DNA from: Eledone cirrhosa
Lineage: Eukaryota
Length of the DNA: 64,000 nt
Assembly (NCBI GenBank): GCA_964016885.1
Contig: OZ024742.1
Coordinates: 227,106,001-227,170,000, forward strand
Direction of reading: 5' to 3'
Part shown: piece after piece, positions 1-63,449 of the stretch
How positions within the stretch are numbered: position 1 is the first letter of the stretch
How the letters are laid out: every line of letters begins with the position of its first letter
Program-made: the position numbers and the translations under genes
The notes under the pieces: model-generated
What the model was told of the DNA's origin: nothing
Database searches by the model: none
Seen by the model: the letters and a program-made list of their open reading frames with translations, nothing else

Positions 1-3000
1 TGCCACCCAACCGCAGTCTACCTACCACTGCCAGCCAACCACAGTCTACCTACCACTGCCACCCAACCGCACTCTACCTACCACTGCCACCCAACCGCAC
101 TCTACCTACCACTGCCACCCAACCACTGTCTATCAGCCACAGTCTACCTACCACTGCCACCCAACCGCAGTCTACCTACCACTGCCACCCAACCACAGTC
201 TACCTACCACTGCCACCCAATCACTGTCTACCTACCACTGCCACCCAACCACAGTCTACCTACCACTGCCTCCCAACCACAGTCTACCTACCACTGCCAC
301 CCAACCACAGTCTAGCTACCACTGCAACCCATTCACTGTCTACCTACCACTGCCACCCAGCCACAGTCTACCTACCACTGCCACCCAATCACTGTCTACC
401 TACCACTGCCACCCAATCACTGTCTACCTACAACTGCCACCCAACCACAGTCTACCTACCACTGCCACCCAACCACAGTCTACCTACCACTGCCACCCAA
501 CCACAGTCTACCTACCACTGCCACCCAACCACGGTCTACCTACCACTGCCTCCCAACCACAGTCTACCTACCACTGCCACCCAACCACAGTCTACCTACC
601 ACTGCCACCCAACCACTGTCTATCAGTCACAGTCTACCTACCACTGCCACCCAAACACAGTCTACCTACCACTGCCACCCAACCACTGTCTACCTAACAC
701 TGCCACCCAAACAGTCTACCTACCATTGCCACCAACCGTAGTCTACCTACCACTGCCACCCAACCACAGTCTACCTACCCTGCCACCCAAACACAGTCTA
801 CCTACTACTACCACCCAACCACTGTCTATCAGTCACAGTCTACCTACCACTGCCACCCAAACACAGTCTACCTACCACTGCCACCCAACCACAGTCTACC
901 TACCACTGCCACCCAACCACAGTCTACCTACCACTGCCACCCAGCCACAGTCTAGCTACCACTGCCACCCAACCACAGTCTACCTACCACTGCCACCCAG
1001 CCACAGTCTAGCTACCACTGCCACCCAACCACAGTCTACCTACCACTGCCACCCAACCACAGTCTAGCTACCACTGCCACCCAACCACAGTCTACCTACC
1101 ACTGCCACCCAGCCACAGTCTACCTATCACTGCCACCCAACCACAGTCTACCTACCACTTCCACCCAACCACAGTCTACCTACCACTGCCACCCAACCGC
1201 AGTCTACCTACCACTGCCACCCAACCGCAGTCTACCTACCACTGCCACCCAACCACAGTCTACCTACCACTTCCACCCAACCACAGTCTACCTACCACTG
1301 CCACCCAACCGCAGTCTACCTACCACTGCCACCCAACCACAGTCTACCTACCACTGCCACCCAACCACAGTCTACCTACCACTTCCACCCAACCACAGTC
1401 TACCTACCACTGCCACCCAACCGCAGTCTACCTACCACTGCCACCCAACCACAGTCTACCTACCACTTCCACCCAACCACAGTCTACCTACCACTGCCAC
1501 CCAACCGCAGTCTACCTACCACTGCCACCCAACCACAGTCTACCTACCACTGCCACCCAACCACAGTCTACCTACCACTGCCACCCAACCACAGTCTACC
1601 TACCACTGCCACCCAACCGCAGTCTACCTACCACTGCCACCCAACTACAGTCTACCTACCACTGCCACCCAAAAGCAGTCTACCTACCACTGCCACCCAA
1701 CCACTGCCACCCAACCACAGTCTACCTACCACTGCCACCCAACCACAGTCTACCTACCACTGCCACCCAACCGCAGTCTACCTACCACTGCCACCCAACT
1801 ACAGTCTACCTACCACTGCCACCCAACCGCAGTCTACCTACCACTGCCACCCAAAAGCAGTCTACCTACCACTGCCACCCAAAAGCAGTCTACCTACCAC
1901 TGCCACCCAACCGCAGTCTACCTACCACTGCCACCCAACCACAGGTTACCTACCACTGCCACCCAACTGCAGTCTACCTACCACTGCCACCCAACCGCAC
2001 TCTACCTACCACTGCCACCCAACCGCAGTCTACCTACCACTGCCACCCAACCACAGTCTACCTACCACTGCCACCCAACCGCAGTCTACCTACCATTGCC
2101 ACCCAACCGCAGTCTACCTACCACTGCCACCCAACCACAGTCTACCTACCACTGCCACCCAACCGCAGTCTACCTACCACTGCCACCCAACCGCAGTCTA
2201 CCTACCACTGCCAGCCAACCACAGTCTACCTACCACTGCCACCCAACCGCACCCTACCTACCACTGCCACCCAACCGCACTCTACCTACCACTGCCACCC
2301 AACCGCAGTCCACGTACCACTGCCACCCAACAACAGTCTACCTACCACTGCCACCCAACCACAGTATACCTACCACTGCCACCCAGCCACAGTCTACCTA
2401 CCACTGCCACCCAAAAGCAGTCTACCTACCACTGCCACCCAAAAGCAGTCTACCTACCACTGCCACCCAACCGCAGTCAACCTACCACTGCCACCCAACC
2501 ACAGTCTACCTACCACTGCCACCCAACCACAGTCTACCTACCACTGCCACCCAACCACAGTCTACCTACCACTGCCACCCAACCACAGTCTACCTACCAC
2601 TGCCACCCAACCGCAGTCTACCTACCACTGCCACCCAACCGCACTCTACCTACCACTGCCACCCAACCGCAGTCTACCTACCACTGCCATCCAACCGCAG
2701 TCTACCTACCACTGCCACCCAACCGCAGTCTACCTACCACTGCCACCCAACCGCACTCTACCTACCACTGCCACCCAACCACAGTTTACCTACCACTGCC
2801 ACCCAACCACTGTCTATCAGCCACAGTCTACCTACCACTGCCACCCAACCACAGTCTACCTACCACTGCCACCCAACCACAGTCTACCTACCACTGCCAC
2901 CCAACCACTGCCACCCAACCACAGTCTACCTACCACTGCCACCCAAAAGCAGTCTACCTACCACTGCCATCCAACCACTGCCACCCAACCACAGTATACC

Positions 3001-6000
3001 TACCACTGCCACCCAGCCACAGTCTACCTACCACTGCCACCATAAAGCAGTCTACCTACCACTGCCACCCAAAAGCAGTCTACCTACCACTGCCACCCAA
3101 CCGCAGTCAACCTACCACTGCCACCCAACCACAGTCTACCTACCACTGCCATCCAACCGCACTCTACCTACCACTGCCACCCAACCGCAGTCTACCTACC
3201 ACTGCCACCCAACCGCAGTCTACCTACCACTGCCACCCAACCGCAGTCTACCTACCACTGCCACCCAACCACAGTCTACCTACCACTGCCACCCAACCAC
3301 AGTATACCTACCACTGCCACCCAACCACTGTCTATCAGCCACAGTCTACCTACCACTGCCACCCAACCACAGTCTACCAGCCACTGCCACCCAACCACAG
3401 TCTACCTACCACTGCCACCCAACCACAGTCTACCTACCACTGCCACCCAACCGCAGTCTACCTACCACTGCCACCCAACCGCAGTCTACCTACCACTGCC
3501 ACCCAACCACAGTCTACCTACCACTGCCACCCAACCACAGTCTACCTACCACTGCCACCCAACCGCAGTCTACCTACCACTGCCACCCAACCGCAGTCTA
3601 CCTACCACTGCCACCCAACCGCAGTCTACCTACCACTGCCACCCAACCGCAGTCTACCTACCACTGCCACCCAACCACAGTCTACCTACCACTGCCACCC
3701 AACCACAGTATACCTACCACTGCCACCCAACCACTGTCTATCAGCCACAGTCTACCTACCACTGCCACCCAACCACAGTCTACCAGCCACTGCCACCCAA
3801 CCACAGTCTACCTACCACTGCCACCCAACCACAGTCTACCTACCACTGCCACCCAACCGCAGTCTACCTACCACTGCCACCCAACCACAGTCTACCTACC
3901 ACTGCCACCCAACCACAGTCTACCTACCACTGCCACCCAACCACAGTCTACCTACCACTGCCACCCAGCCACAGTCTAGCTACCACTGCCACCCAACCAC
4001 AGTCTACCTACCACTGCCATCCAGCCACAGTCTAGCTACCACTGCCACCCAACCACAGTCTACCTACCACTGCCACCCAACCACAGTCTAGCTACCACTG
4101 CCACCCAACCACAGTCTACCTACCACTGCCACCCAGCCACAGTCTACCTACCACTGCCACCCAACCACAGTCTACCTACCACTTCCACCCAACCACAGTC
4201 TACCTACCACTGCCACCCAACCGCAGTCTACCTACCACTGCCACCCAACCACAGTCTACCTACCACTTCCACCCAACCACAGTCTACCTACCACTGCCAC
4301 CCAACCGCAGTCTACCTACCACTGCCACCCAACCACAGTCTACCTACCACTGCCACCCAACCACAGTCTACCTACCACTGCCACCCAACCACAGTCTACC
4401 TACCACTGCCACCCAACCGCAGTCTACCTACCACTGCCACCCAACCGCAGTCTACCTACCACTGCCACCCAACTACAGTCTACCTACCACTGCCACCCAA
4501 CTACAGTCTACCTACCACTGCCACCCAAAAGCAGTCTACCTACCACTGCCACCCAACCACTGCCACCCAACCACAGTATACCTACCACTGCCACCCAACC
4601 ACAGTCTACCTACCACTGCCACCCAACCACAGTCTACCTACCACTGCCACCCAACCGCAGTCTACCTACCACTGCCACCCAACTACAGTCTACCTACCAC
4701 TGCCACCCAACCGCAGTCTACCTACCACTGCCACCCAACCACAGGTTACCTACCACTGCCACCCAAAAGCAGTCTACCTACCACTGCCACCCAACCGCAG
4801 TCTACCTACCACTGCCACCCAACCACAGTCTACCTACCACTGCCACCCAACCGCAGTCTACCTACCACTGCCACCCAACCGCAGTCTACCTACCACTGCC
4901 AGCCAACCACAGTCTACCTACCACTGCCACCCAACCGCACCCTACCTACCACTGCCACCCAACCACAGTCTACCTACCACTGCCACCCAACCACAGTCTA
5001 CCTACCACTGCCACCCAACCGCAGTCTACCTACCACTGCCACCCAACCGCACTCTACCTACCACTGCCACCCAACCGCAGTCTACCTACCACTGCCACCC
5101 AAAAGCAGTCTACCTACCACTGCCACCCAACCGCAGTCTACCTACCACTGCCACCCAACCGCACTCTACCTACCACTGCCACCCAACCACAGTTTACCTA
5201 CCACTGCCACCCAACCACTGTCTATCAGCCACAGTCTACCTACCACTGCCACCCAACCACAGTCTACCTACCACTGCCACCCAACCACTGCCACCCAACC
5301 ACAGTATACCTACCACTGCCACCCAACTACAGTCTACCTACCACTGCCACCCAAAAGCAGTCTACCTACCACTGCCATCCAACCACTGCCACCCAACCAC
5401 AGTATACCTACCACTGCCACCCAGCCACAGTCTACCTACCACTGCCACCCAAAAGCAGTCTACCTACCACTGCCACCCAAAAGCAGTCTACCTACCACTG
5501 CCACCCAACCGCAGTCAACCTACCACTGCCACCCAACCACAGTCTACCTACCACTGCCATCCAACCGCACTCTACCTACCACTGCCACCCAACCGCAGTC
5601 TACCTACCACTGCCACCGAACCGCAGTCTACCTACCACTGCCACCCAACCACAGTCTACCTACCACTGCCACCCAACCACAGTATACCTACCACTGCCAC
5701 CCAACCACTGTCTATCAGCCACAATCTACCTACCACTGCCACCCAACCACAGTCTACCAGCCACTGCCACCCAACCACAGTCTACCTACCACTGCCACCC
5801 AACCACAGTCTACCTACCACTGCCACCCAACCTACCTACCACTGCCACCCAACCGCAGTCTACCTACCACTGCCACCCAACCACAGTCTACCTACCACTG
5901 CCACCCAACCACAGTATACCTACCACTGCCACCCAACCACAGTCTACCTACCACTGCCACCCAACCGCAGTCTACCTACCACTGCCACCCAACCGCAGTC

Positions 6001-9000
6001 TACCTACCACTGCCACCCAACCGCAGTCTACCTACCACTGCCACCCAACCACAGTCTACCTACCACTGCCACCCAACCGCAGTCTACCTACCACTGCCAC
6101 CCAACCGCAGTCTACCTACCACTGCCACCCAACCGCAGTCTACCTACCACTGCCACCCAACCGCAGTCTACCTACCACTGCCACCCAACCGCAGTCTACC
6201 TACCACTGCCACCCAACCGCAGTCTACCTACCACTGCCACCCAACCACAGTCTACCTACCACTGCCACCCAACCACAGTATACCTACCACTGCCACCCAA
6301 CCACTGTCTATCAGCCACAGTCTACCTACCACTGCCACCCAACCACAGTCTACCAGCCACTGCCACCCAACCACAGTCTACCTACCACTGCCACCCAACC
6401 ACAGTCTACCTACCACTGCCACCCAACCGCAGTCTACCTACCACTGCCACCCAACCGCAGTCTACCTACCACTGCCACCCAACCACAGTCTACCTACCAC
6501 TGCCACCCAACCGCAGTCTACCTACCACTGCCACCCAACCGCAGTCTACCTACCACTGCCACCCAACCGCAGTCTACCTACCACTGCCACCCAACCGCAG
6601 TCTACCTACCACTGCCACCCAACCACAGTCTACCTACCACTGCCACCCAACCACAGTCTACCTACCACTGCCACCCAACCACAGGTTACCTACCACTGCC
6701 AGCCAACCACAGTCTACCTACCACTGCCACCCAACCGCACTATACCTACCACTGCCACCCAACCACAGTCTACCTACCACTATCACCCAAACGCAGTCTA
6801 CCTACCACTGCCACCCAACCACTGTCTATCAGCCACAGTCTACCTACCACTGCCACCCAACCGCAGTCTACCTACCACTGCCACCCAGCCGCAGTCTACC
6901 TACCACTGCCACCCAACCACAGTCTACCTACCACTGCCACCCAACCACAATCTACCTACCACTGCCACCCAACCACAGTCTACCTACCACTGCCACCCAA
7001 CCGCACTCTACCTACCACTGCCACCCAACCGCACTCTACCTACCACTGCCACCCAACCACAATCTACCTACCACTGCCACCCAACCACAGTCTACCTACC
7101 ACTGCCACCCAACCACAGTCTACCTACCACTGCCACCCAACCACAGTCCACCTACCACTACCACCCAACCACAGTCTACCTACTACTACCACCCAACCAC
7201 TGTCTATCAGCCACAGTCTACCTACCACTGCCACCCAACCGCACTCTACCTACCAATGCCACCCAACCACAGTCTACCTACCACTGCCACCCAACCGCAG
7301 TCTACCTACCACTGCCACCCAACCGCAGTCTACCTACCACTGCCACCCAACCACAGTCTACCTACCACTGCCACCCAACTGCAGTCTACCTACCACTGCC
7401 ACCCAACCGCAGTCTACCAGCCACTGCCACCCAACCGCAGTCTACCTACCACTGCCACCCAACCACAGTCTACCTACCACTGCCACCCAACCACAGTCTA
7501 CCTACCACTGCCACCCAACCACAGTCTACCTACCACTGCCACCCAACCACAGTCTACCTACCACTGCCACCCAACCACAGTCTACCTACCACTGCCACCC
7601 AACCGCACTATACCTACCACTGCCACCCAACCACAGTCTACCTACCACTATCACCCAAAAGCAGTCTACCTACCACAGCCACCCAAACGCAGTCTACCTA
7701 CCACTGCCACCCAACCACTGTCTATCAGCCACAGTCTACCTACCACTGCCACCCAACCGCAGTCTACCTACCACTGCCACCCAGCCGCAGTCTACCTACC
7801 ACTGCCACCCAACCACAGTCTACCTACCACTGCCACCCAACCACAATCTACCTACCACTGCCACCCAACCACAGTCTACCTACCACTGCCACCCAACCGC
7901 ACTCTACCTACCACTGCCACCCAACCGCACTCTACCTACCACTGCCACCCAACCACAATCTACCTACCACTGCCACCCAACCACAGTCTACCTACCACTG
8001 CCACCCAACCACAGTCTACCTACCACTGCCACCCAACCACAGTCCACCTACCACTACCACCCAACCACAGTCTACCTACTACTACCACCCAACCACTGTC
8101 TATCAGCCACAGTCTACCTACCACTGCCACCCAACCGCACTCTACCTACCACTGCCACCCAACCGCACTCTACCTACCACTGCCACCCAACCACAATCTA
8201 CCTACCACTGCCACCCAACCGCAGTCTACCTACCACTGCCACCCAACCGCAGTCTACCTACCACAGTTTACCTACCACTGCCACCCAACCACTGTCTATC
8301 AGCCACAGTCTACCTACCACTGCCACCCAACCGCAGTCTACCTACCACTGCCACCCAACCACAGTCTACCTACCACTGCCACCCAACCGCAGTCTACCTA
8401 CCACTGCCACCCAACCGCAGTCTACCTACCACAGTTTACCTACCACTGCCACCCAACCACTGTCTATCAGCCACAGTCTACCTACCACTGCCACCCAACC
8501 GCAGTCTACCTACCACTGCCACCCAACCGCAGTCTACCTACCACTGCCACCCAACCGCAGTCTACCTACCACTGCCACCCAACCGCACTCTACCTACCAC
8601 TGCCACCCAACCGCACTCTACCTACCACTGCCACCCAACCGCAGTCCACCTACCACTGCCACCCAACCGCAGTCTACCTACCACTGCCACCCAACCACAG
8701 TCTACCTACCACTGCCACCCAACCACAGTCTACCTACCACTGCCTCCCAACCACAGTCTACCTACCACTGCCACCCAAAAGCAGTCTACCTACCACAGCC
8801 ACCCAACCGCAGTCTACCTACCACTGCCACCCAACCACAGTCTACCTACCACTGCCACCCAAAAGCAGTCTACCTACCACAGCCACCCAACCGCAGTCTA
8901 CCTACCACTGCCACCCAACCACAGTCTACCTACCACTGCCACCCAAAAGCAGTGTACCTACCACAGCCACCCAACCGCAGTCTACCTACCACTGCCACCC

Positions 9001-9875
9001 AACCACAGTCTACCTACCACTGCCACCCAAAAGCAGTCTACCTACCACAGCCACCCAGCCACAGTCTACCTACCACTGCCACCCAACCGCACTCTACCTA
9101 CCACTGCCACCCAACCACAGTCTACCTACCACTGCCACCCAACCACATTCTACCTACCACTGCCACCCAAAAGCAGTCTACCTACCACTGCCACCCAACC
9201 ACAGTCTACCTACCACTGCCACCCAACCGCACTCTACCTACCACTGCCACCCAACCACAGTCTACCAGCCACTGCCACCCAACCGCAGTCTACCTACCAC
9301 TGCCACCCAACCACAGTCTACCTACCACTGCCACCCAACCGCAGTCTACCTACCACTGCCACCCAACCACAGTCTACCTACCACTGCCACCCAACCGCAG
9401 TCTACCAGCCACTGCCACCCAACCGCAGTCTACCTACCACTGCCACCCAACCACAGTCTACCTACCACTGCCACCCAACCGCAGTCTACCTACCACTGCC
9501 ACCCAACCGCAGTCTACCAGCCACTGCCACCCAACCACAGTCTACCTACCACTGCCACCCAACCACAGTCTACCTACCACTGCCACCCAACCGCAGTCTA
9601 CCAGCCACTGCCACCTAACCACAGTCTACCTACCACTGCCACCCAACTACAGTCTACCTACCACTGCCACCCAACCGCAGTCTACCAGCCACTGCCACCC
9701 AACCACAGTCTACCTACCACTACCACCCAACCACAGTCTACCTACCACTGCCACCCAACCACAGTCTACCTACCACTGCCACCCAACCACAGTCTACCTA
9801 CCACTGCCACCCAACCGCAGTCTACCAGCCACAGTCTACCTACCACTGCCACCCAACCACAGTCTACCAGCCACT
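1..9875. repeat. 28-bp minisatellite array, consensus CCACTGCCACCCAA-CCACAGTCTACCTA, about 350 units, runs off the left edge
   Basis: Direct 28-nt periodicity. The 28-aa repeat in the ORF track equals three units. Variants include 14-nt insertions (CCACTGTCTATCAG) and half-units. Confidence 0.98.
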
Positions 9876-10027
9876 GGCCACACATCACATATAGTCAGCA
9901 TTATGGTGATCATTACAAACAATGTAGAGTTAACAAACATTTTCTTTTCACAATCTAGGTCAAGACTGTTGTGTTTAACAACATAATATACTTCTTGTTG
10001 TAGACCTGTGTATGTATGTATGTATAA

Positions 10028-10354: not shown

Positions 10355-10510
10355 TTGCATGGCTGTGAGGTTAAGAGGTTTGCTTAGCAACTATGTGGTC
10401 TTGGGTTTTATCTCACAGTATCTCACTTTGAGCAGCATATTCTTTTATTATAGCCATGGGCCAACCAATTTGTGTGAAATTTGCTAGACAAGCTGAAAGG
10501 AAGACTGTCA
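10355..10510 (+). mobile_element. Degenerate tRNA-derived SINE (family also at ~40315-40440, 48730-48876 minus, 50682-50850, 51180-51330)
   Basis: A-box-like TGGCTGTG-GGTTAAG, B-box-like GGTT..ATC, and a shared body ending in tgtgaaatttg.tagac.gaaactg across copies. Confidence 0.6.
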
Positions 10511-10530
10511 TATATATATATATATATATA

Positions 10531-10642
10531 TAATGAAGGAAATGTGGTAAGGAACCAGATGGACCATAACGCACCAAAGTACTCAATACTTAGCGTAGTA
10601 GAGTGGATAATAGGAACGAGTAGGACCCCTACTCGTTCCTAT
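10531..10642 (-). mobile_element. Short foldback element, family A, in (TA)n
   Basis: Reverse complement of ~11955-12048. Terminal hairpin ATAGGAACGAGTAGG-acc-CCTACTCGTTCCTAT at 10610-10642. TA tracts on both sides. Confidence 0.75.
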
Positions 10643-10847
10643 ATATATATATAGTTTGATATGTATTTTCTCAAAGCTGTAAGGGAATCATTCTGTCACT
10701 ACCATAACAGAAGTCCGATTAGCTTTTGTTTCCATAGTTGGACCCTATCAATACAGATCAAACCTTGACCTGATCAATCGCAAAACGTGCATCACACCTC
10801 AATAAATGTAATGAAGACCTAACACCTCGTCCTTTTTATTATTATTA

Positions 10848-11175: not shown

Positions 11176-11642
11176 TATATATATACATATCATCATCATC
11201 ATACCGTTTAACATCCATTTTTCCATGCTAGCATGGATTAGATGAGTTGTCCTGTTGTAAGACAAGTAAAATCAGGTAACTATATCTTGATCATATAGAA
11301 CTGGTTCTGGCTTGGTTTCTATGGCTGGATGCCCTTTCTAACACTAACCACATTTACAGAGTGTACTAGGGGCTTTTTATATATATGACCAATTATAGCA
11401 AAGTTGCACATGAAAAAACCAAACACATAGATGCTTTTGTTCATTTGTCTTAACTTCCTCTTCAGTCACTCTCTGGGCAGTGCAGTTGTGTGCATAAGGG
11501 TGGTATTGCATAATATTACATCCAGATTGCATGAGACAACATAACATAGAGACAGGGGCCAGCAAGTGTCTTTTGACTGAAAACAGGACAGGATATATAT
11601 ATATGTATATAATAATATATATATATATAAATATATATATAT

Positions 11643-11798
11643 ATATTGTTATACTTTGGGAGGGTCATGTTGCCAATAAGAAACACACACACTGGTGCGT
11701 GTGTTTCTTATTGGCAACATGACCCTCCCAAAGTATAACAATATCGGTTTCAACACACGATTTCAGATAAAGAATCTTGCTAAACAAATTCAGAAACG

Positions 11799-11854: not shown

Positions 11855-11859
<5 letters not shown>

Positions 11860-12048
11860 AACGAGTAGGACCCCGACGGCTGAGCTCGAGCCGTTTCGAC
11901 GGCTAATTCAGTCCAGAATTAGCCGTCGAAACGGCTTGAGCTCAGCCTTCGGGGTCCTACTCGTTCCTATTACCCACTCTACTACCCTAAGTGTTGAGTA
12001 CTTTGGTGCGTATGGTCCACCTGGTTCCTTACCACATTTCCTTCGTTA
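11855..12048 (+). mobile_element. Foldback element, family A: 55-bp arms plus ~78-nt tail, in (TA)n
   Basis: Arms 11855-11909 and 11916-11970 differ at 2 positions. GTCGAAACGG follows the apical stem. Confidence 0.75.
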
Positions 12049-12185
12049 TATATATATATATATATAAATATATATATATGCGCAAAGAAGACAAAATAAA
12101 ATAAACAAACAAATAAATAAATAAATATATAAACAGACTAAATAAAGATGGCGTAGACATACAATGTAACGGGAGGAAACAATAG

Positions 12186-12226: not shown

Positions 12227-12453
12227 ATAAACTATATATATGTGTTTGTGTCTATATTGTATCTGTATTATTTTTGACTGTTGGTCAGTCAATGGCAACA
12301 TTGAGGACCGAATAAATTAGATTACCGATATAAAAGACACAGAAGCGAAAACCAACCAACCAGTGAGTGTGTTCTGTTATTAATTCTGGCAATATTACAC
12401 AAATATGACCCTCCCCAAGTATAACAATATATATATATATATTTATTAAAATA

Positions 12454-12526
12454 ACAGATTAAAGTTTAAGCAAAGAATTGCTACTTTCACCCTTAACGGG
12501 ATCTTCTGAAACTAAAGTCAATCTGT
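12454..12526 (-). ncRNA. Type I hammerhead-like ribozyme with variant core CAGAAGA (inverted copy)
   Basis: Minus strand reads ACAGATTGA-cttt-AGTTT-CAGAAGA-T-CCC-gttaa-GGG-T-GAAA-GTAG-caattct-TTGC-T-T-AAACT-TTAATCTGT; all three stems pair. Confidence 0.6.
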
Positions 12527-13399
12527 GAATGCAGAAGTGAATATTTCAAAAAACGTAGCAACCGGAGGAAGACAGGAAGACGATACTTTGGTTCGTGGAA
12601 ACGTTCCCTGGCAAAGAACGGGAAAAAACGAATATAATACGTCATTATTTGGAGCGGTGAAAAACAATTACACGCAAAGACAAAACCACGTTTATGGTAT
12701 AAAAGAAGTCGTAGACTAATATTCTATTAGGTGGTTCATAGAGACGTTCTCAAGCATATACGTTTATTTAATTTTATGTATACACGCACACACACACATA
12801 TATATATTTTTATATATATTTTTATGTGTATTTGGTGTACACATTTGTATGCGTGCGGGTACAGGCGTTGCGTGTGTTTTTTTTTTTTTTTTTTTTTTTG
12901 TGTACGTGCATGTATTTGTATACCTATGGCGAGTATTTTCGCGTATGCTTGTGTATGTACGTATATGGATGCGTGTATGTATTTATTTATCTCAATTACC
13001 TCTGTATTTTATTTACTTTATTCATAACTCTAAAGCCGAGAATCATTCGGTTTCCTAGTTAGAATTTTAGTCTACGACTTCAGTTATACCATTTACGTGG
13101 TTTTGTCTTTGCGTGCAATTGTTCTCCGCGTTCCACATATGACGTATTATCTTCGTTTTTTCCGTTCAGTGCCAGATAACGTCTCTATGAACCACCTAAT
13201 AGAATATTAGTCGACGACTTCTTTTATACCATAAACGTGGTTTTGTCTTTGCGTGTAATTGTTTTTCACCCCTCCAAATAATGACGTATTATATTCGTTT
13301 TTTCCCGTTCTTTGCCAGGGAACGTTTCCACGAACCAAAGTATCGTCTTCCTGTTTTCCTCCGGTTGCTACGTTTTTTGAAATATTCACTTCTACGTTC

Positions 13400-13475
13400 A
13401 CAGATTGACTTTGTTAGTTTCAGAAGATCCCGTTAGGGGTGAAAGCAGCGATTCTTTGCTTAAACTTTAATCTGT
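13400..13475 (+). ncRNA. Type I hammerhead-like ribozyme with variant core CAGAAGA
   Basis: Stem I 13416-20/13462-66 plus distal helix 13400-08/13467-75; stem II CCC/GGG; GAAA 13441-44; stem III 13444-48/13456-60; NUH triplet CUU, predicted cut after 13461. Confidence 0.65.
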
Positions 13476-13576
13476 TATTTTAATAAATATTTGCTCTACG
13501 GTTCATATATATTTGATATATATTTATCCTTATCGAGCCCTCTTTGGATTTTAGTCTTCAAATTTATTATTATTAC

Positions 13577-13655
<79 letters not shown>

Positions 13656-31014: not shown

Positions 31015-31941
31015 TAAGATTATAGGCCCGATTCCTGGACTAGGCAACGTGTTCATTTCTTGCTCTTTTCTTTTCTAACTTTACTTTGATAAACAGTTTA
31101 ACTCACAGTGTCAGATCCCTTCTCTTTCTTCATATCATCATCATCATCATTTCATTTTACGTCCACTTTTCCCTGCTTGCAAGGGTGGGACGGGAACTGA
31201 TTCTGGCTTAATTTCTACAGTCGGATGCCCTTTCTAACACCAACCTCATTTACAGTGAGTGCTGGGCGCTTTTTTTCCATGGCACCTACACGTCCACTTT
31301 ACAGTGTCGGCTGGGTGCTTTTTTTGCCGTGGCACCTCCACGACCACTTTGCAGTGGAATGATAGGGACCCCAGTCCCTATCATCTCATTTCTACAGCTG
31401 AGTGAACTGGAGCAATGTGGAATAAAGTGTCTTGCTCAAGGAAACAACACATCACCCGGTCTGAGAATTGAACTCACAACCTTTCGATTGCAAGGCCAAT
31501 GCTCTAACCACTAAGCCATGTGCCTCCATATAGTGTTCATATTTTCGTCCATGTTTACTTTTTTCATTCTTTTTTCACTTTTTGTTTACTGTTTTAAACT
31601 TCATGTTTTGCCTGTATATCACAATGTCCTTTTGTGTTGTCTTTACCTATGTATGCATGTGTGTGTGTGCCTTTGATAGTGTACCAAATAATATATTAAC
31701 AAGAAGTAATAAAACACTGTTCATCACTTGGATAAAAAAAATATAATATTAAAATGTTGTTTATAATTTGTATCTAGTGCTTTTATCTTTCCACAGACCT
31801 ATCAAGATATAAATTTAGTTTATATCTTATTCCCTGAAAGATGAAAGTGATAGATTTATATTATAAACGACATCATTTTATTATTATATTTTTATCCAAG
31901 TAAAAAACAGTGTTGGCAATTATATTTTATAAATCCAGCCA

Positions 31942-31943
<2 letters not shown>

Positions 31944-32008
<65 letters not shown>

Positions 32009-32098
32009 GCCTGCCTGCCTGCCTGCCTGTCTGCCTGCCTGCCTGCCTGTCTGCCTGCCTGTCTGTCTGTCTGTCTGTATGCCTGCCTGCCTGCCTGT
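31944..32098. repeat. Compound (CT)n-(CTGC/CTGT)n microsatellite, 5' flank of the Tx1 element
   Basis: Directly visible. Confidence 0.95.
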
Positions 32099-35000
32099 TT
32101 GGCCCGGATCAGCAGCATGCGACAGCTAACCCCCACCTTTGATGACTTTGAGATGCACGCATCTCTCTGTCAGCCCGGAGGTGGGGGTGGGGTTGTCGTT
32201 CTGCTGCAAAAACATCTGGGTCTCGCTACACAGACGGTACACTTGGACCCGGAGGGTCGACTCGTGGTTCTGGACCTTGGCAATGGCGAAGGCGAAGCTT
32301 TTAGGCTTGTCGCCGTATACGCCCCTTTTGGGGCAATGCGGTCGGACTTCTTCCATCGTCTGGAGACTTTTCTAGGGACGTCCCGCTCCTTGCTTTTAGT
32401 GGGGGACTGGAATGGTATCCTAGATGCACGTTGGGACTATGTGGGGGCATGTCCCGATAGAGGGGGGTGTAACAGCCTTAAGGGGTTAATCGGCCGATTC
32501 GACCTGGCCGATAGATACCGACTAGATTTTCCGACTGTACCAACCTGGACCTGGTCAAATAACAGTGGTCAATCTAGATCGTACCTAGATAGGTTCTTAG
32601 TTAGAATTAAGGATAGGGACTTTTTAAGTTGTCCAGAAATGCTCATGGTGGGCTATTCAGACCACAAGTTAGTGACCTGCGTAGTCCACCTTGATAGAAC
32701 GCATAGGCAGGGGCCCGGTTACTGGAAGCTCAACTTGTCCTTACCAGCAAGTAGAGCTTACAGAGACCGGATTAGAACCTTAGTTAAGGAGCAGTTGACG
32801 GGCGCCATCGTCAACAACAGGTGGTGGGGCTCTCTAAAAAGAGAGATTAGAGTAGTTTCAATAGGAGTTAGTAAGGAGTTAGCCTCAGATAGAAATAGTA
32901 AGGAAAGGGAGTTGGTAGTTAATGTTGAAGAGGCAATGAGAAGCGGCAACGTGGCCAGAGTGCAAGCGTCGAGAACGGTCTTGAACCAGTTCTTCGACGC
33001 GAAACACGAAGGCTGCGTTGTCCGAAGCAAAATACGTGCTCTGGGAAACGAGGGGACCAAAGCTGTTAGCTGGGCCCGCGTGACAGAAGCGAAAAGTGGG
33101 ATTAAATCCACTATCCGGTCTTTGCGAGACCAGGATGGACGGCTGATCCTTGAACCTAAGCAAATGTGCGAGGCCTTTCAAAGGCACTTTGCCGAATTGT
33201 TCGGGAGGGGCGGGGAGCCGGTTGGAGATGTGGATTTCGGTCCATACCTCGACGGCCTGCCGCGTCTTTCGGACAGGGAGGCGAGGTCCTGCGACGGGCC
33301 GATCTCAGCTGCTGAAATAGGGGACGTGCTGAGCCTATGCGGCAAACGCAAATCTCCAGGACTCGATGGTCTGCCCTACGAACTATATATTAATATGCCG
33401 GACTTGTTCCCCGATCTCCTCGAGGCGGTCTACTGCAACTGGCAACAGAACGGGAGAATTCCCTGTTCTGTGACCAAGGGCGTAGTCTCGCTAGTGAGGA
33501 AGGACGAGAACAAGGGGGATGACATTAGTAATTTTAGGCCCATAACTCTGCTAAATGCAGAGTTAAAGATTTTGGCGAAGGTGTTAGCGAAGAGGTTGGC
33601 GCTTGTCGTGGGGGGCCTGGTGGGAGATGCGCAGACATGCGCTATCCCGTCCAGGTCCATCCACGACAACCTCCACCTCACGCGATACATCATAGAGAGG
33701 GTTGGGAACGAACCCGGCTTTGGTGGGGCCCTGATAAATTTAGATCAGTCTAAAGCGTTCGATAGGGTGGACCATGGTTACCTGGATGCGGTGCTAGCGG
33801 CGGCTGGGTTCGGACCCGTTTTCAGGGGCTGGATCACTGCCATGCACAGCAGCCGCATCTGCTCTAGAGTCAAGGTGAACGGCTACCTTTCGGAGCCGTT
33901 CGAAATCACCCGCTCCATCCGACAGGGGTGCCCTCTCTCCTCCCTTCTGTATGTGTTGACTCTCGAGCCATTACTGCGGAAGTTGGAGTTGTTGCAGGGC
34001 ATCCCTTTGGAACCGGGATTGCGCAAAGCGGTGTCGGCCTACGCCGATGACGTAACAGTAATGGTGTCGACCGCCTCGGAAATCGAGGCAATCGGCACCT
34101 TACTAGAGGAGTACGAAAGGTTGACAGGGGCTAAGCTGAACCGGGACAAGTCAGTCGCTTTGCAACTCGGCGAGTGGAGGGGCAAAGCGATGTCGTGCGA
34201 CGGTATCGTCGGACGGTGGACGGAGGGCCCGGTGAAGTTGCTTGGGGTCTGGTTCGGACCGGACCTCCAGGTGGAGAAAAACTGGGGTGAGGTGACGAAT
34301 AGGGTGTTTGCACTGACCCAGAAGTGGGCCGAGTGCAAACTATCCCTAAAAGGTCGGGCGGAGGTGGCGAATGCTTACATAGCGTCCGTCATCTATTACC
34401 GCTTGACTGTCGTGCCTTGCCCGGGTGAGATCCTCGCCAAAATGGAGCGCGCCCTCTTTTATTTCCTTTGGAAGAATAGGTCTCCTCTGGTGAGGAGATC
34501 CATCTGCTGTCAACACCCTTTGAAAGGAGGGCTGGGGATGCCGTGGCTAAAAATGCGTAAACACGCATTGAGGCTAAGGCACCTCCACGTATTCCTCACC
34601 GGTCAACCGGTGTGGGCCCCGTTTGTGAGGCGAGCCTTCCCGAGGCTCGTCTCGCTCACCGAGCTGCAGTCCTGGGTGAAGCAAAGACCGAGAAAACTGG
34701 GCGACTGGCACACCGAGTGTGCCCAGGCGCTCACGGCTCTCTGGCAGGCGGACCCGGCTATCGACGGAGACTCCACCTCGTCATTCTATAGAGGGCTGGT
34801 GGTTAGCGGGTGCGACGACGCCCTCGGAGAAGCCCTAGGCATGGAGGAGGACGAACTGGCCAGTCTATTCGGTAGGACTTTCGGCCCGGGACCTATGGAC
34901 AACTTCCAGAAGTCCTTGGCCTGGCAGTGCTACCGAGGGGCTCTGCCCGTTCGGGATAAGCTCTACAGACACGGGCGCCCGGGTAGGGACCCCTCGAAAA

Positions 35001-35643
35001 AGATCTGTCCCAGATGCGTGCGCGACGAGGAAACCGTCGCGCACGCATTGGTGCACTGCCCGGGCGTTGCCGATCTGTGGGGCTATGTCGAACGACTGTT
35101 GTCACGGGTGGGACCAATTAGGTTGACCACCGAGTCCATTGTAACGATCAAGCCGCCTCCCCCCTTCAAAAATGAAGGAGAGGCGGTCTTCCTCTGTGTA
35201 ATAGCCATGGTAAAAGAGGCTATATGGTGGACGCGTCTGAAAGGGTTGAGGTCGGACACCTTTCTCTCCGGCCAACAACTGGTCCTTTTCTTCCGATACC
35301 ATTTCGGAAGAAGGATCAGGATGGAGAGAGAGGTGCTCCACTCCAGCCAGTTTTATGAAAGGTGGGTGAAAGTTGCGAGAATGGCCCGTGTGAATGGGCC
35401 TTCTCTCTACCTCAGCCTGTAGGTGGAACAGAAAGAAGGGAGCACCCTCTCTTTGTGCTCCCGTGGAGAAGGGTCGCACACTTTTTTCGGGGGTGTGTGT
35501 GACCCCAAAACGATCCCTCCCTATTGAGGACCTTCTTGTTATTATTTTGTTTGTTATATTTTTCTTACTCGATTTTTATGTAAACTCCCCCCACCCATGT
35601 ACATGTCCCTTTCTTTTGTGCCCTAGTGGCAAATAAACAGAAA

Positions 35644-60254: not shown

Positions 60255-60654
60255 TCAAACTGATTCAGAACTTTGTGAAGCAAGTTTATTTATAAAATCT
60301 TGCATTTTGGCACTGGCAGTGTGTCGTAAAGCTCTTCTGGCTGTATTGAGAGGAATTACTGGTACATTTTGGTAAATTTCGCTTGGGAATCCTGCCATTG
60401 TGAACAGAGCAATTTTATTCATTACATCTTTCTCTTTTCTCAGTGGTTTTGTTAATTTCCAGTTGTCATTTTTTACTCTAAAATTTTCATATTGAGTTAA
60501 AGAAGGTTGTTTATATGTGTCTGTCTCTAATATTTTATTGTTATGTGTTTCTGTTGTTTCCATGTCAGTTTCTGTTGTTATTGCTGGCTTTTTAGGAGAT
60601 TTCTTTAGAAAATGTTTGATTCTAATATAGATATTATTATTATCATAATCATCA

Positions 60655-60687
<33 letters not shown>

Positions 60688-61697
60688 CTCTTTGACTGTG
60701 ATCTATTTTGTATATGACTAATTTTCAGAATTTCTGTAACACATTTATTACTGTCAGTTGTATCATCATCATCATCATCATTATCATCATTGTTATTATT
60801 ATTGTTGTTGTATTTTAACAATGCTCTACTATTTTCACATTTGTTGCTGTTACTACTATTACTACTGTGCTGTTTTCCCAAAAGAGTTCCTTTCCTATTG
60901 ATACTTGGTAAACCAGGAGATTTTAAACTTGTAATTCCATAATCACTATTTTGTTCAGATTCACCAATTCCTCCATGTTGTAATATCGGCAGCAATATGG
61001 AATCTGTTTCATCTTTCGGGCTTTTAGCAGAAGATTCAAGTAAAACAGAAAACTTTTGTTCTCTATTATTGGAAGTAAGAAATTCTGGCAAATATTTCCA
61101 CTGATCAGAACTCGGATTTTGTTCTGATTCATATGGGATATAATCAAAGTTAGTTTTATCATTCCTCATGGTTCGTGTTTCTAAACTATTTGAAGTTTTT
61201 ATTTTGGACTTTTTTGTTTTAAAATTCTTTATTTTATTTGGCTGACCATCTGTGCATATCTTTGGCACTTTTGTATATTCAGATGGTTTTGAATTGGTGT
61301 TTATATTTGACATTGTGGCTGAGTTATTAAGTCTCATTCTTATAGGGTAGCGCTGGTTTTTCTCCAAGTAAAACTGATTGAGGCAGAGTCCATGATGACT
61401 CAAAGACGTTGTCAATCGTGATTCATCTTTCTTGAAGTCGCGATCAGGAAAATATCTTTTCTTCAATTCCAACTGTGCATGTTTCTTTTCCAGTGAAAAT
61501 TCCTTAATTTTCTGTCGTAGATATATCACTTGACCTGTGATTTTATGAAGTCTTGCCTGAAGTTGACGATCCATTTCTTTTTCAACTACGTTCAGGGCAT
61601 TTTCATAAATATTATCTTTTGCTATCTTTAAGCGATCATTGGTCAGTTTCTTCCTTTCTCTTGTCCAATCACATTCTAGTAATGTCTGTGCTTCCAT
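60255..61697 (-). CDS. Uncharacterised 480-aa protein with helical N-terminus and low-complexity Asn/Asp-rich body; nested antisense in a RSPRY1 intron
   Basis: 1443-nt stop-free frame in AT-rich DNA; AAG-ATG-G start with an in-frame stop 24 nt upstream; only triplet microsatellites inside; AATAAA array just past the stop; no TE motifs recognised. Confidence 0.75.
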
Positions 61698-63449
61698 CTT
61701 TACATCATTTATTAACTCTTAACATTTTGTATGATGTAATGATATAGCAGTAAATATCTAAAGACAAGTTTGTTAATTCAAATGTTTATAGTATTTTTAT
61801 TTGTGGACAGACTGTGAAAACTTGCAGTTATTAGACTAAAGACTTTAGTTTTTAATATGATACAGCCATAGTGCTGTTTTGTAGTTTTCAAGAATGTGTT
61901 GCTAATGTGGTTTCACATGGTTTGTTAATTGAATTGTTTATAATATCTTTACTAGTGGACAGATTGTTCTGAAAATGTGCAGTATTAGAGTAAAGACTTG
62001 AATTTTTAATGTGATGAAGTCATTGTGCTCTTTTGTACGTTTCAAGAATTTCTTGCTGATGCAGTTTCATGTGGTATAGAATGTTAAGAGTTTATACTTG
62101 GTTTTAGATTACAGCAAATCTGAAACAACAATGTACCATTAAATATGAGTTTTTTCTAAAAACTGAAGCATTTTTAATTTTATTCAATTTTTTTTTTTAA
62201 ATCGACAATTATAAATTGTCTGGGCTTTACATTAGATGGAATGTTTAGATAAATATATACATGAAATAATAACATTTTATCTAATATATCATTTAAAGTT
62301 CGTGTTTTCATGCTAGAATGGATCGGGCAGATCATCACAGAACAAGCTGGTACTTAATCTCTCTCTCTCTGCATATATATATATATATATAATGAGGTGG
62401 GTGTTAACAAGGGCATCCGGCTGTAAAATCCCCGACCAAATTTACAGTCCTCTTTGGAGCATGGTACAGTGTGGCCAATTCTGGTCAGACTTGTCTCGCA
62501 ATATGGACAACCCATCTAACCCATGCAAGCATGAAAAAATGAATGCTAAACAGTGATGATGATGAATATATCGAAATAAAAACGTCTTGATTTCATTGTT
62601 CTGTAAAGAGCTCAATGGAAGTAAGATGAGAAAAAACCTATTCCAGAGCGTATTTATGAAAGAATATTACAGAAACATTATATATTGTAATACATATGAC
62701 AAGGAACAAAAGTAATCAGAATATATTAATTACATTACTTGTTATACCTTTACAGTTATCTTAACCATTTCATTACCATATCTCTAATGAAATACACAAC
62801 CCATGTGTTTCAATTTATTTTGAAAATAATAAAGAATTTGATAAAGTGCTTAATTCAGAGATCAGAGAGTCACTCCAGGTAGAGCTGCTACTTCTCCAAG
62901 ATCACAGCTCCAATACTACGGGCTTGTGGTTAGAATGTCTCAGGAATGAATCACTGGACAGATTTTATGGGCAAAACCAACCAGCAAGAGATCCAGGTGT
63001 AGACAACGAGCATGATGGTTAGATAACATCCATGAGCTAGGCTGGTCTCGTTTGGAGATCAGTTGGAGACGGTTGGTTCTGACAGGACCCACTGGAAGGA
63101 GTGTTTGAGGACTCTGCCTGCCCCCACGACCCTCTCAGGAATAAGTGGGTGAAGAAGAAGCTGAAGAATTTGATGGAATTTAATAATATAGCCTAACGTT
63201 TTCATTGTTAATTTCACTTTATCACCACAATTATTTAGTACAAGGTCTTGTGTGCGTGTGTGTAAAAAACATTGTTTTATGTCTGTCTTCCATGCTAGCA
63301 TGGGTTGGATGTGTTGTCACATTCTGAAACTAGACATGTCATCTGGCTCATATGCTCCATGTTGGTAAGGTTTCTGCTTGTACTGGGTGCATTTTTTTAT
63401 TGGGAGTGCATGCGTATGCACACACACACACATATATATAAATATCATA

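Follow-up and report, generated by a model that had tools for sequence, protein, structure and literature searches.

Hammerhead ribozymes are nearly universal in Penelope-like elements (PLEs), yet cleavage proved dispensable for insertion in the one in vitro system (PMC11167929). The minimal hammerheads of PLEs are described as having low activity, with dimers proposed (PMC4209133), and that of the Anolis element PAc is reported to be assisted by protein (PMC11167929). Inverted 5' copies and pairs of hammerheads on opposite strands are likewise described for PLEs. Natural hammerheads with U10.1-U11.1 and weak stems are known, and the conserved U4 of the core is described as contacting the A6-N7 phosphate; in a natural viroid, a U4C variant has low activity in vitro that suffices in vivo (all PMC3088659). 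According to a deep mutagenesis study of a type III hammerhead, all single and double mutants of the CUGA turn have low activity, the C-G swap excepted (PMC9901934).

Two hammerhead folds in which A stands at position 4 were found in the window, the whole 64-kb stretch of Eledone cirrhosa DNA that was analysed. When both strands were scanned with a descriptor that allowed any base at position 4, exactly two matches were returned, with C3 at 13421 on the forward strand and at 12508 on the reverse strand, whereas Markov-simulated sequence gave 0.017 loose matches and 0 equally good matches per 54 kb (60 runs). This bears out the original prediction of two complete type I folds in opposite orientations with an A4 core. 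The right fold (13400..13475, forward strand) is of type I with a near-palindromic stem-loop III. Its stem I pairs 13416-13420 with 13462-13466 and 13400-13408 with 13467-13475, with a 7-nt bulge; the core spans 13421-13427, with A4 at 13422, and is accompanied by a 3-bp stem II, GAAA at 13441-13444, a 5-bp stem III and a CUU triplet, with the predicted cut after 13461. The left fold (12454..12526, reverse strand) has A4 at 12507 and its predicted cut between 12468 and 12467, and bears a 3-nt bulge deletion and two transitions. A U·U at 10.1/11.1 had also been claimed and was confirmed (13428/13440). It is, from the sequences compared, normal for the Hydra clade of PLEs, being present in 14 of the 25 Hydra families of File S2 in PMC8557442 and in a sister lineage of the same genome.

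Stems I, II and III are arranged around the three-way junction in type I order, 95.6% of 545 stem cells are paired across 42 copies, and C3, G5, A6, G8, A9, G12, A13, A14, A15.1-U16.1 and H17 are all present and unchanged in the majority sequences of three subfamilies. Rfam gave no hammerhead match at E<=5, and fold z-scores were only -1.2 to -1.7. For the right copy the hammerhead fold was computed at -13.7 kcal/mol vs -18.6 kcal/mol for the minimum-energy fold, about 5 above the minimum. Stem-loop III has a computed self-duplex energy of -12.9 kcal/mol vs -3.6 kcal/mol for the hairpin, and that of the sister lineage behaves alike. The four differences said to separate the ribozymes of the two arms (the bulge deletion, one in loop II, one in loop III and one C-G turned into U-G) are as claimed; three are peculiar to the left arm and the fourth to the right. 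Since these are private changes in a family that is 3.1% diverged from its majority, they provide no evidence of selection.

Both folds belong to a single insertion, forming the two ends of one 5'-truncated Hydra-type PLE copy with an inverted 5' piece, and the window copy is best seen as a passive by-product that has no function itself. The inverted piece (12439..12751, reverse strand) matches the right arm over 316 nt at 96% identity by blastn and aligns in reverse to the pLTR of genomic copy L061. It lacks the tail, stopping at the element's short 3' end, which is a recurrent end in DNA contigs. Four junction bases (12752..12755) separate it from the forward copy (12756..13575, forward strand), which maps to L061 4269-4887 and 1353-1681 and comprises 3' UTR, pLTR and tail with no ORF; matches in genomic copies L006, L015, L029 and L030 begin at 12756. 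Within the forward copy, a 140-nt tandem duplication in the element's 3' region (13060..13337, forward strand) is a feature of the family, and its repeats gave no hammerhead in the descriptor scan. The tail extension (13491..13575, forward strand) is found at the right end only, as judged from the family's two recurrent 3' ends and from the flanks of family copies. The insertion lies in a (TA)n target, at 12427..12438 on the left and 13577..13610 on the right. Two recurrent 3' ends characterize the family, at L061 1596 and 1678, seen in 140 and 91 of one run's DNA contigs, respectively; their distances downstream of the predicted cut are 29 and about 111 nt, and the two ends of the window copy match them. 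Paired 3' ends of this kind are a PLE tail signature, explained by two internal reverse transcription start sites (PMC11167929).

The right arm carries four family-minor alleles (13177, 13213, 13355 and 13394), all absent from the left arm, when compared with copies picked by their likeness to the right arm; a rare variant at 13369 is common to both. The arms may derive from two templates or reflect later conversion. Elsewhere in the window, short palindromic (TA)n insertions at 11627-11744, 11855-12069, 12402-12446 and 10510-10666, with arms 93-96% identical and second copies nearby, resemble head-to-head ends of other (TA)n-targeting elements and gave no hammerhead descriptor match. A 28-nt satellite array of about 350 copies fills 1-9880, an apparently intact LINE whose frame of 1,172 codons is unbroken and includes APE endonuclease, RT and zf-RVT lies at 31904-35422 (forward strand), and a 487-codon low-complexity frame at 60255-61718 (reverse strand), with no Pfam family above the cut-off, is possibly a host exon.

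The arm is a dispersed repeat of the 3.0-Gb genome, its best copies being 95-97% identical. Direct-repeat pairs of the motif 3,259-3,261 nt apart flank an ORF, giving a unit of 3.26 kb, and copies L141 and L143 have an open 713-codon frame with the A4 motif on either side. The element ORF encodes 709 aa with an RT plus a C-terminal GIY..YIG-type motif. It contains RWR (in place of RWK), DKT, YRDD, a CxCX5C linker, CxxC and CxH, with a single Cys between GIY and YIG and no CCHH cysteine pair. Pfam scans of the ORF itself returned no family and no solved structure matched it, while its atlas neighbours carry GIY-YIG, HTH_animal and RVT_1. As these protein motifs match the definition of the Hydra clade in PMC8557442, the family is best described as a putative Hydra-clade PLE, a placement drawn from the motifs. 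Tandem and inverted pLTRs, a tail and the (TA)n target are all present in the family, and the canonical pLTR hammerhead core expected of the clade is absent, A4 standing in its place. The non-coding parts of intact copy L143 contain no other CTGANGA or TTGANAA. A non-LTR retrozyme was ruled out, the unit being a 3.26-kb coding element whose 140-nt repeats are free of hammerheads.

PLE-type hammerheads are very abundant in this genome: among loci L005-L210, no fewer than eight further canonical families were encountered by chance. Very short palindromic copies with the inversion junction at proximal stem I or in the core (L159, L170, L171 and L172; L306, L316 and L343/L344) occur in the focal and sister lineages alike, and reflect either a hot spot of inversion at the ribozyme or non-autonomous derivatives that were amplified.

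In a genome-wide exact search with identical flanks, A4 was found in 19,774 of 19,981 matches vs 207 with C, G or T, and canonical U4 is thus not the state of the family. Thirty of the exceptions were fetched (G in 12, T in 10 and C in 8), a spectrum that looks as expected of scattered later mutations. The same base is found in older subfamilies, whose copies are about 80% identical to each other and whose decayed ORF pieces share 30-83% identity (55-75% for most) with the young protein. A4 is present in 29 of 30 older-subfamily copies found by DNA similarity, in 23 of 24 and 17 of 17 copies compared in register (counts restricted to indel-free copies with undamaged anchors), and pattern matches of the older subfamilies, 220 in all, have it in 94 of the first 100. 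U4 is the base in all 25 Hydra families listed in PMC8557442, in a 714-codon family of the same genome and in the closest sister lineage (94 of the first 100 of 7,090 matches). Because the older subfamilies have A4 and the sister lineages U4, the U4-to-A change was fixed on the focal lineage before its known subfamilies split. The suggestion that A4 was a private decay mutation is therefore refuted, A4 being the family state and older than the young subfamily; the alternative suggestion of a natural core variant gains support from the same counts.

Two other histories were considered and rejected. A generic A4 search gave 863 matches (control, 96) and hinted at A4 in the sister lineage as well, but the sister's A4 copies proved to be mutants dispersed through a U4 family, so that A4 was not ancestral to the focal and sister lineages together. 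When a U4 subfamily was sought within the focal lineage, 122 and 116 matches came back, which on inspection by eye consisted of copies with point mutations, accidents at junctions and a single small family that is unrelated. One tandem array (L309-L315, G000:C1:53.36 Mb) holds seven A4 copies of another hammerhead repeat, unrelated and ordinarily U4; a core mutant of this retrozyme-like repeat has apparently spread locally. The literature searched yielded neither this family nor a natural U4A hammerhead, a provisional result limited to the texts covered. What is provisionally new is the lineage-wide A4 core; the element type, the pLTR hammerhead, the inversion and the U·U were known already.

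To see how the ribozyme has changed on the A4 background, the majority bases of the young subfamily were compared with those of the older subfamilies O1 and O2, a comparison that covers three source lineages. Between young and O1, 0 of 52 paired or core positions differ, against 9 of the 21 that lie in the bulge and loops or at N7 (Fisher p=3e-6; four further ribozyme positions served as anchor and lie outside the 52). Between young and O2 a single paired or core position differs, where C-G has become U-G at a CpG. N7, the free core position, is the sole core position that changes, and none of the 14 junction positions, G5, G8, A9, G12 and the NUH triplet among them, changes from one subfamily to another. 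With paired and core positions unchanged while loops vary, the fold has been preserved against a background of A4. As judged from these alignments, the data point to selection on the rest of the core in that background and not to selection for A4 itself; an A could have been retained at one position across three subfamilies by chance.

The flanks differ at 8 of 62 positions between young and O1, so that the ribozyme is the more conserved (p=0.0075). They are themselves well conserved on both sides (19 of 22 and 35 of 40 identical), which suggests that the whole 3' block is constrained; in the upstream pLTR, 139 of 285 columns are identical between young and older sequences, gaps counted. Covariation, proposed as a check on the stems, gave a mixed answer. 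One compensatory pair was seen between subfamilies, at the end of stem I (U-A in 14 of 15 O1 copies and C-G in 10 of 14 O2 copies), together with one wobble (another pair, G-U in 6 of 14 O2 copies). Two-sided measures over 42 copies were near those of shuffles (68, 23 and 14 of 500); this count was made without distal stem I, where the aligner left a 1-nt insertion unplaced, and distal stem I was counted by register.

On balance, the account that fits best, and by a little the likelier side of the question, is that the folds are the pLTR hammerhead of a truncated, 5'-inverted Hydra-type copy and that A4 marks a natural variant that is probably slowed and still functional. In transcripts of full tandem copies, the motif would form a hammerhead core, probably by dimerizing via the palindromic stem-loop III or with the protein of the element assisting; a dimer is proposed because the self-duplex of stem-loop III is more stable than its hairpin. 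The RNA would then be cut after CUU, at a point that lies upstream of the two reverse transcription start points by 29 and about 111 nt. The rate would probably be low, since A could not contact the A6-N7 phosphate as U4 does and mutants of the CUGA turn show weak activity in vitro. An element that inserts from uncut RNA may be well served by slow cutting. A4 is not needed for success, as the U4 sister lineage is also abundant. The bolder claim that the A4 hammerhead cleaves usefully, with dimerization or the element protein replacing the U4 contact and more than 20,000 copies making up an active U4A class, may be right, although we hold it with less than even confidence. Were it true, a lineage of active animal retrotransposons would have carried A4 through several amplification waves, missed by CUGA-based searches.

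The main rival of the slowed ribozyme is a core that is dead or nearly so, in a fold kept as a structural handle for the RT-endonuclease near the starts of reverse transcription. It is rather unlikely, though it draws on several observations: the flanks and tail are conserved too, catalytic mutants of the Anolis PLE are reported to insert normally with uncleaved RNA as the main template (PMC11167929), mutants of the CUGA turn were weak in the assays of PMC9901934, and copy 5' ends do not pile up at the predicted cut (0 of 41 loci, three of them duplicates). The last of these is uninformative, as canonical U4 control families show no pile-up either (nearest end at -2 among 25 loci and at +6 among 13, the latter with a truncated reference). 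Against a mere handle, 14 of 14 junction positions are unchanged while N7 and the loops vary, and a core so folded would be expected to cut somewhat. The same constancy bears on a third reading, in which the ribozyme was inactivated once and then hitch-hiked neutrally in a successful lineage. That U4 is nearly invariant elsewhere and that Naiad PLEs are described as thriving without canonical hammerheads both speak for it, but the stems and core did not drift while about 43% of loop positions changed, and this reading, already disfavoured, is the least probable of those that concern the core.

A little above it, and still improbable, is the proposal that A4 was kept because the core CAG serves as the splice acceptor of a 5'-UTR intron, with damage to the ribozyme as a consequence. 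In young and old subfamilies the remaining core is indeed preceded by a pyrimidine tract and CAG, and the intron of D. virilis Penelope is reported to end at the 5' end of helix I (PMC4209133); yet another AG lies 6 nt upstream, no conserved donor was seen by eye in the alignment of old and young sequences, and no GT..AG skip was found among the joints listed from two sets of contigs of unrecorded kind (15 + 15; 66 + 17 more exist). Finally, the inverted pair at this locus had been suggested to act in read-through RNA, which would mask the ribozyme and feed ADAR. The arms are able to pair as claimed, 72 of 76 ribozyme bases being paired in the predicted minimum-energy fold of such an RNA. That the pair is a selected regulatory device is nevertheless very improbable. 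Among the first 100 exact matches, 26 neighbour pairs lie within 5 kb, 19 of them divergent as here, 6 direct and 1 convergent, and both orientations occur together at 13 of 28 other fetched loci. With opposite pairs routine in the family, the inverted pair in the window is ordinary: divergent inverted pairs are a routine insertion product, thousands of inverted copies exist, and the Pfam-recognized long ORFs of the window are retrotransposon pieces.

The slowed-ribozyme account and its main rival differ in what they would mean. If the A4 hammerhead cuts, descriptors assume too strict a core consensus and whole families go uncounted in genomes; otherwise, selection can keep a hammerhead fold for a non-catalytic job. 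The focal lineage with A4 and its sister with U4 share the same architecture, making a natural experiment with a matched control in one genome. The sister is a Hydra-type lineage with a 758-codon frame (L133-L140), 52% identical to the focal element in protein and placed with it in the same 100/100 clade of a 19-protein tree of own-genome and unnamed database proteins. Its hammerhead is like the focal one in its U·U, 3-bp stem II and palindromic stem-loop III, and unlike it in having U4.

Among described systems, natural core variants were reported by Perreault et al. (2011, PMC3088659) as rare single cases, whereas the focal family has about 20,000 copies; U4A is absent from the main text of that paper. 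The minimal PLE hammerheads of Cervera and De la Pena (2014, PMC4209133) resemble the focal one in lying in pLTRs and having a palindromic stem III, and often occur, like the window pair, as opposite-strand pairs 100-700 bp apart. The core variant described there is a compensatory U3-A8 swap, with no position-4 change found in the text covered. The Poseidon element PAc of Anolis (Frangieh et al. 2024, PMC11167929) has, like the focal element, two internal RT starts that define a tail, with the hammerhead upstream, but it belongs to another PLE clade, the core residues assayed were C3 and G8, and its activity was shown whereas that of the focal hammerhead is predicted. The closest likeness is to the Hydra clade as described by Craig et al. 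(2021, PMC8557442), which shares a C-terminal GIY-YIG without CCHH; DKT, CxCX5C, CxxC and CxH; the (TA)n target, tandem and inverted pLTRs and a tail; and a type I hammerhead near the 3' end, with a bulged stem I in Hydra-1_cRog. Three probes from the focal motif had no match in the supplement of that paper, and Hydra-1_Obim has another N-terminus and another hammerhead. The focal element differs from the clade as described in its RWR in place of RWK, its longer stem-loop III, its 3.26-kb unit (most Hydra elements being <3 kb) and, above all in the present context, its A4, where every listed Hydra family has U4.
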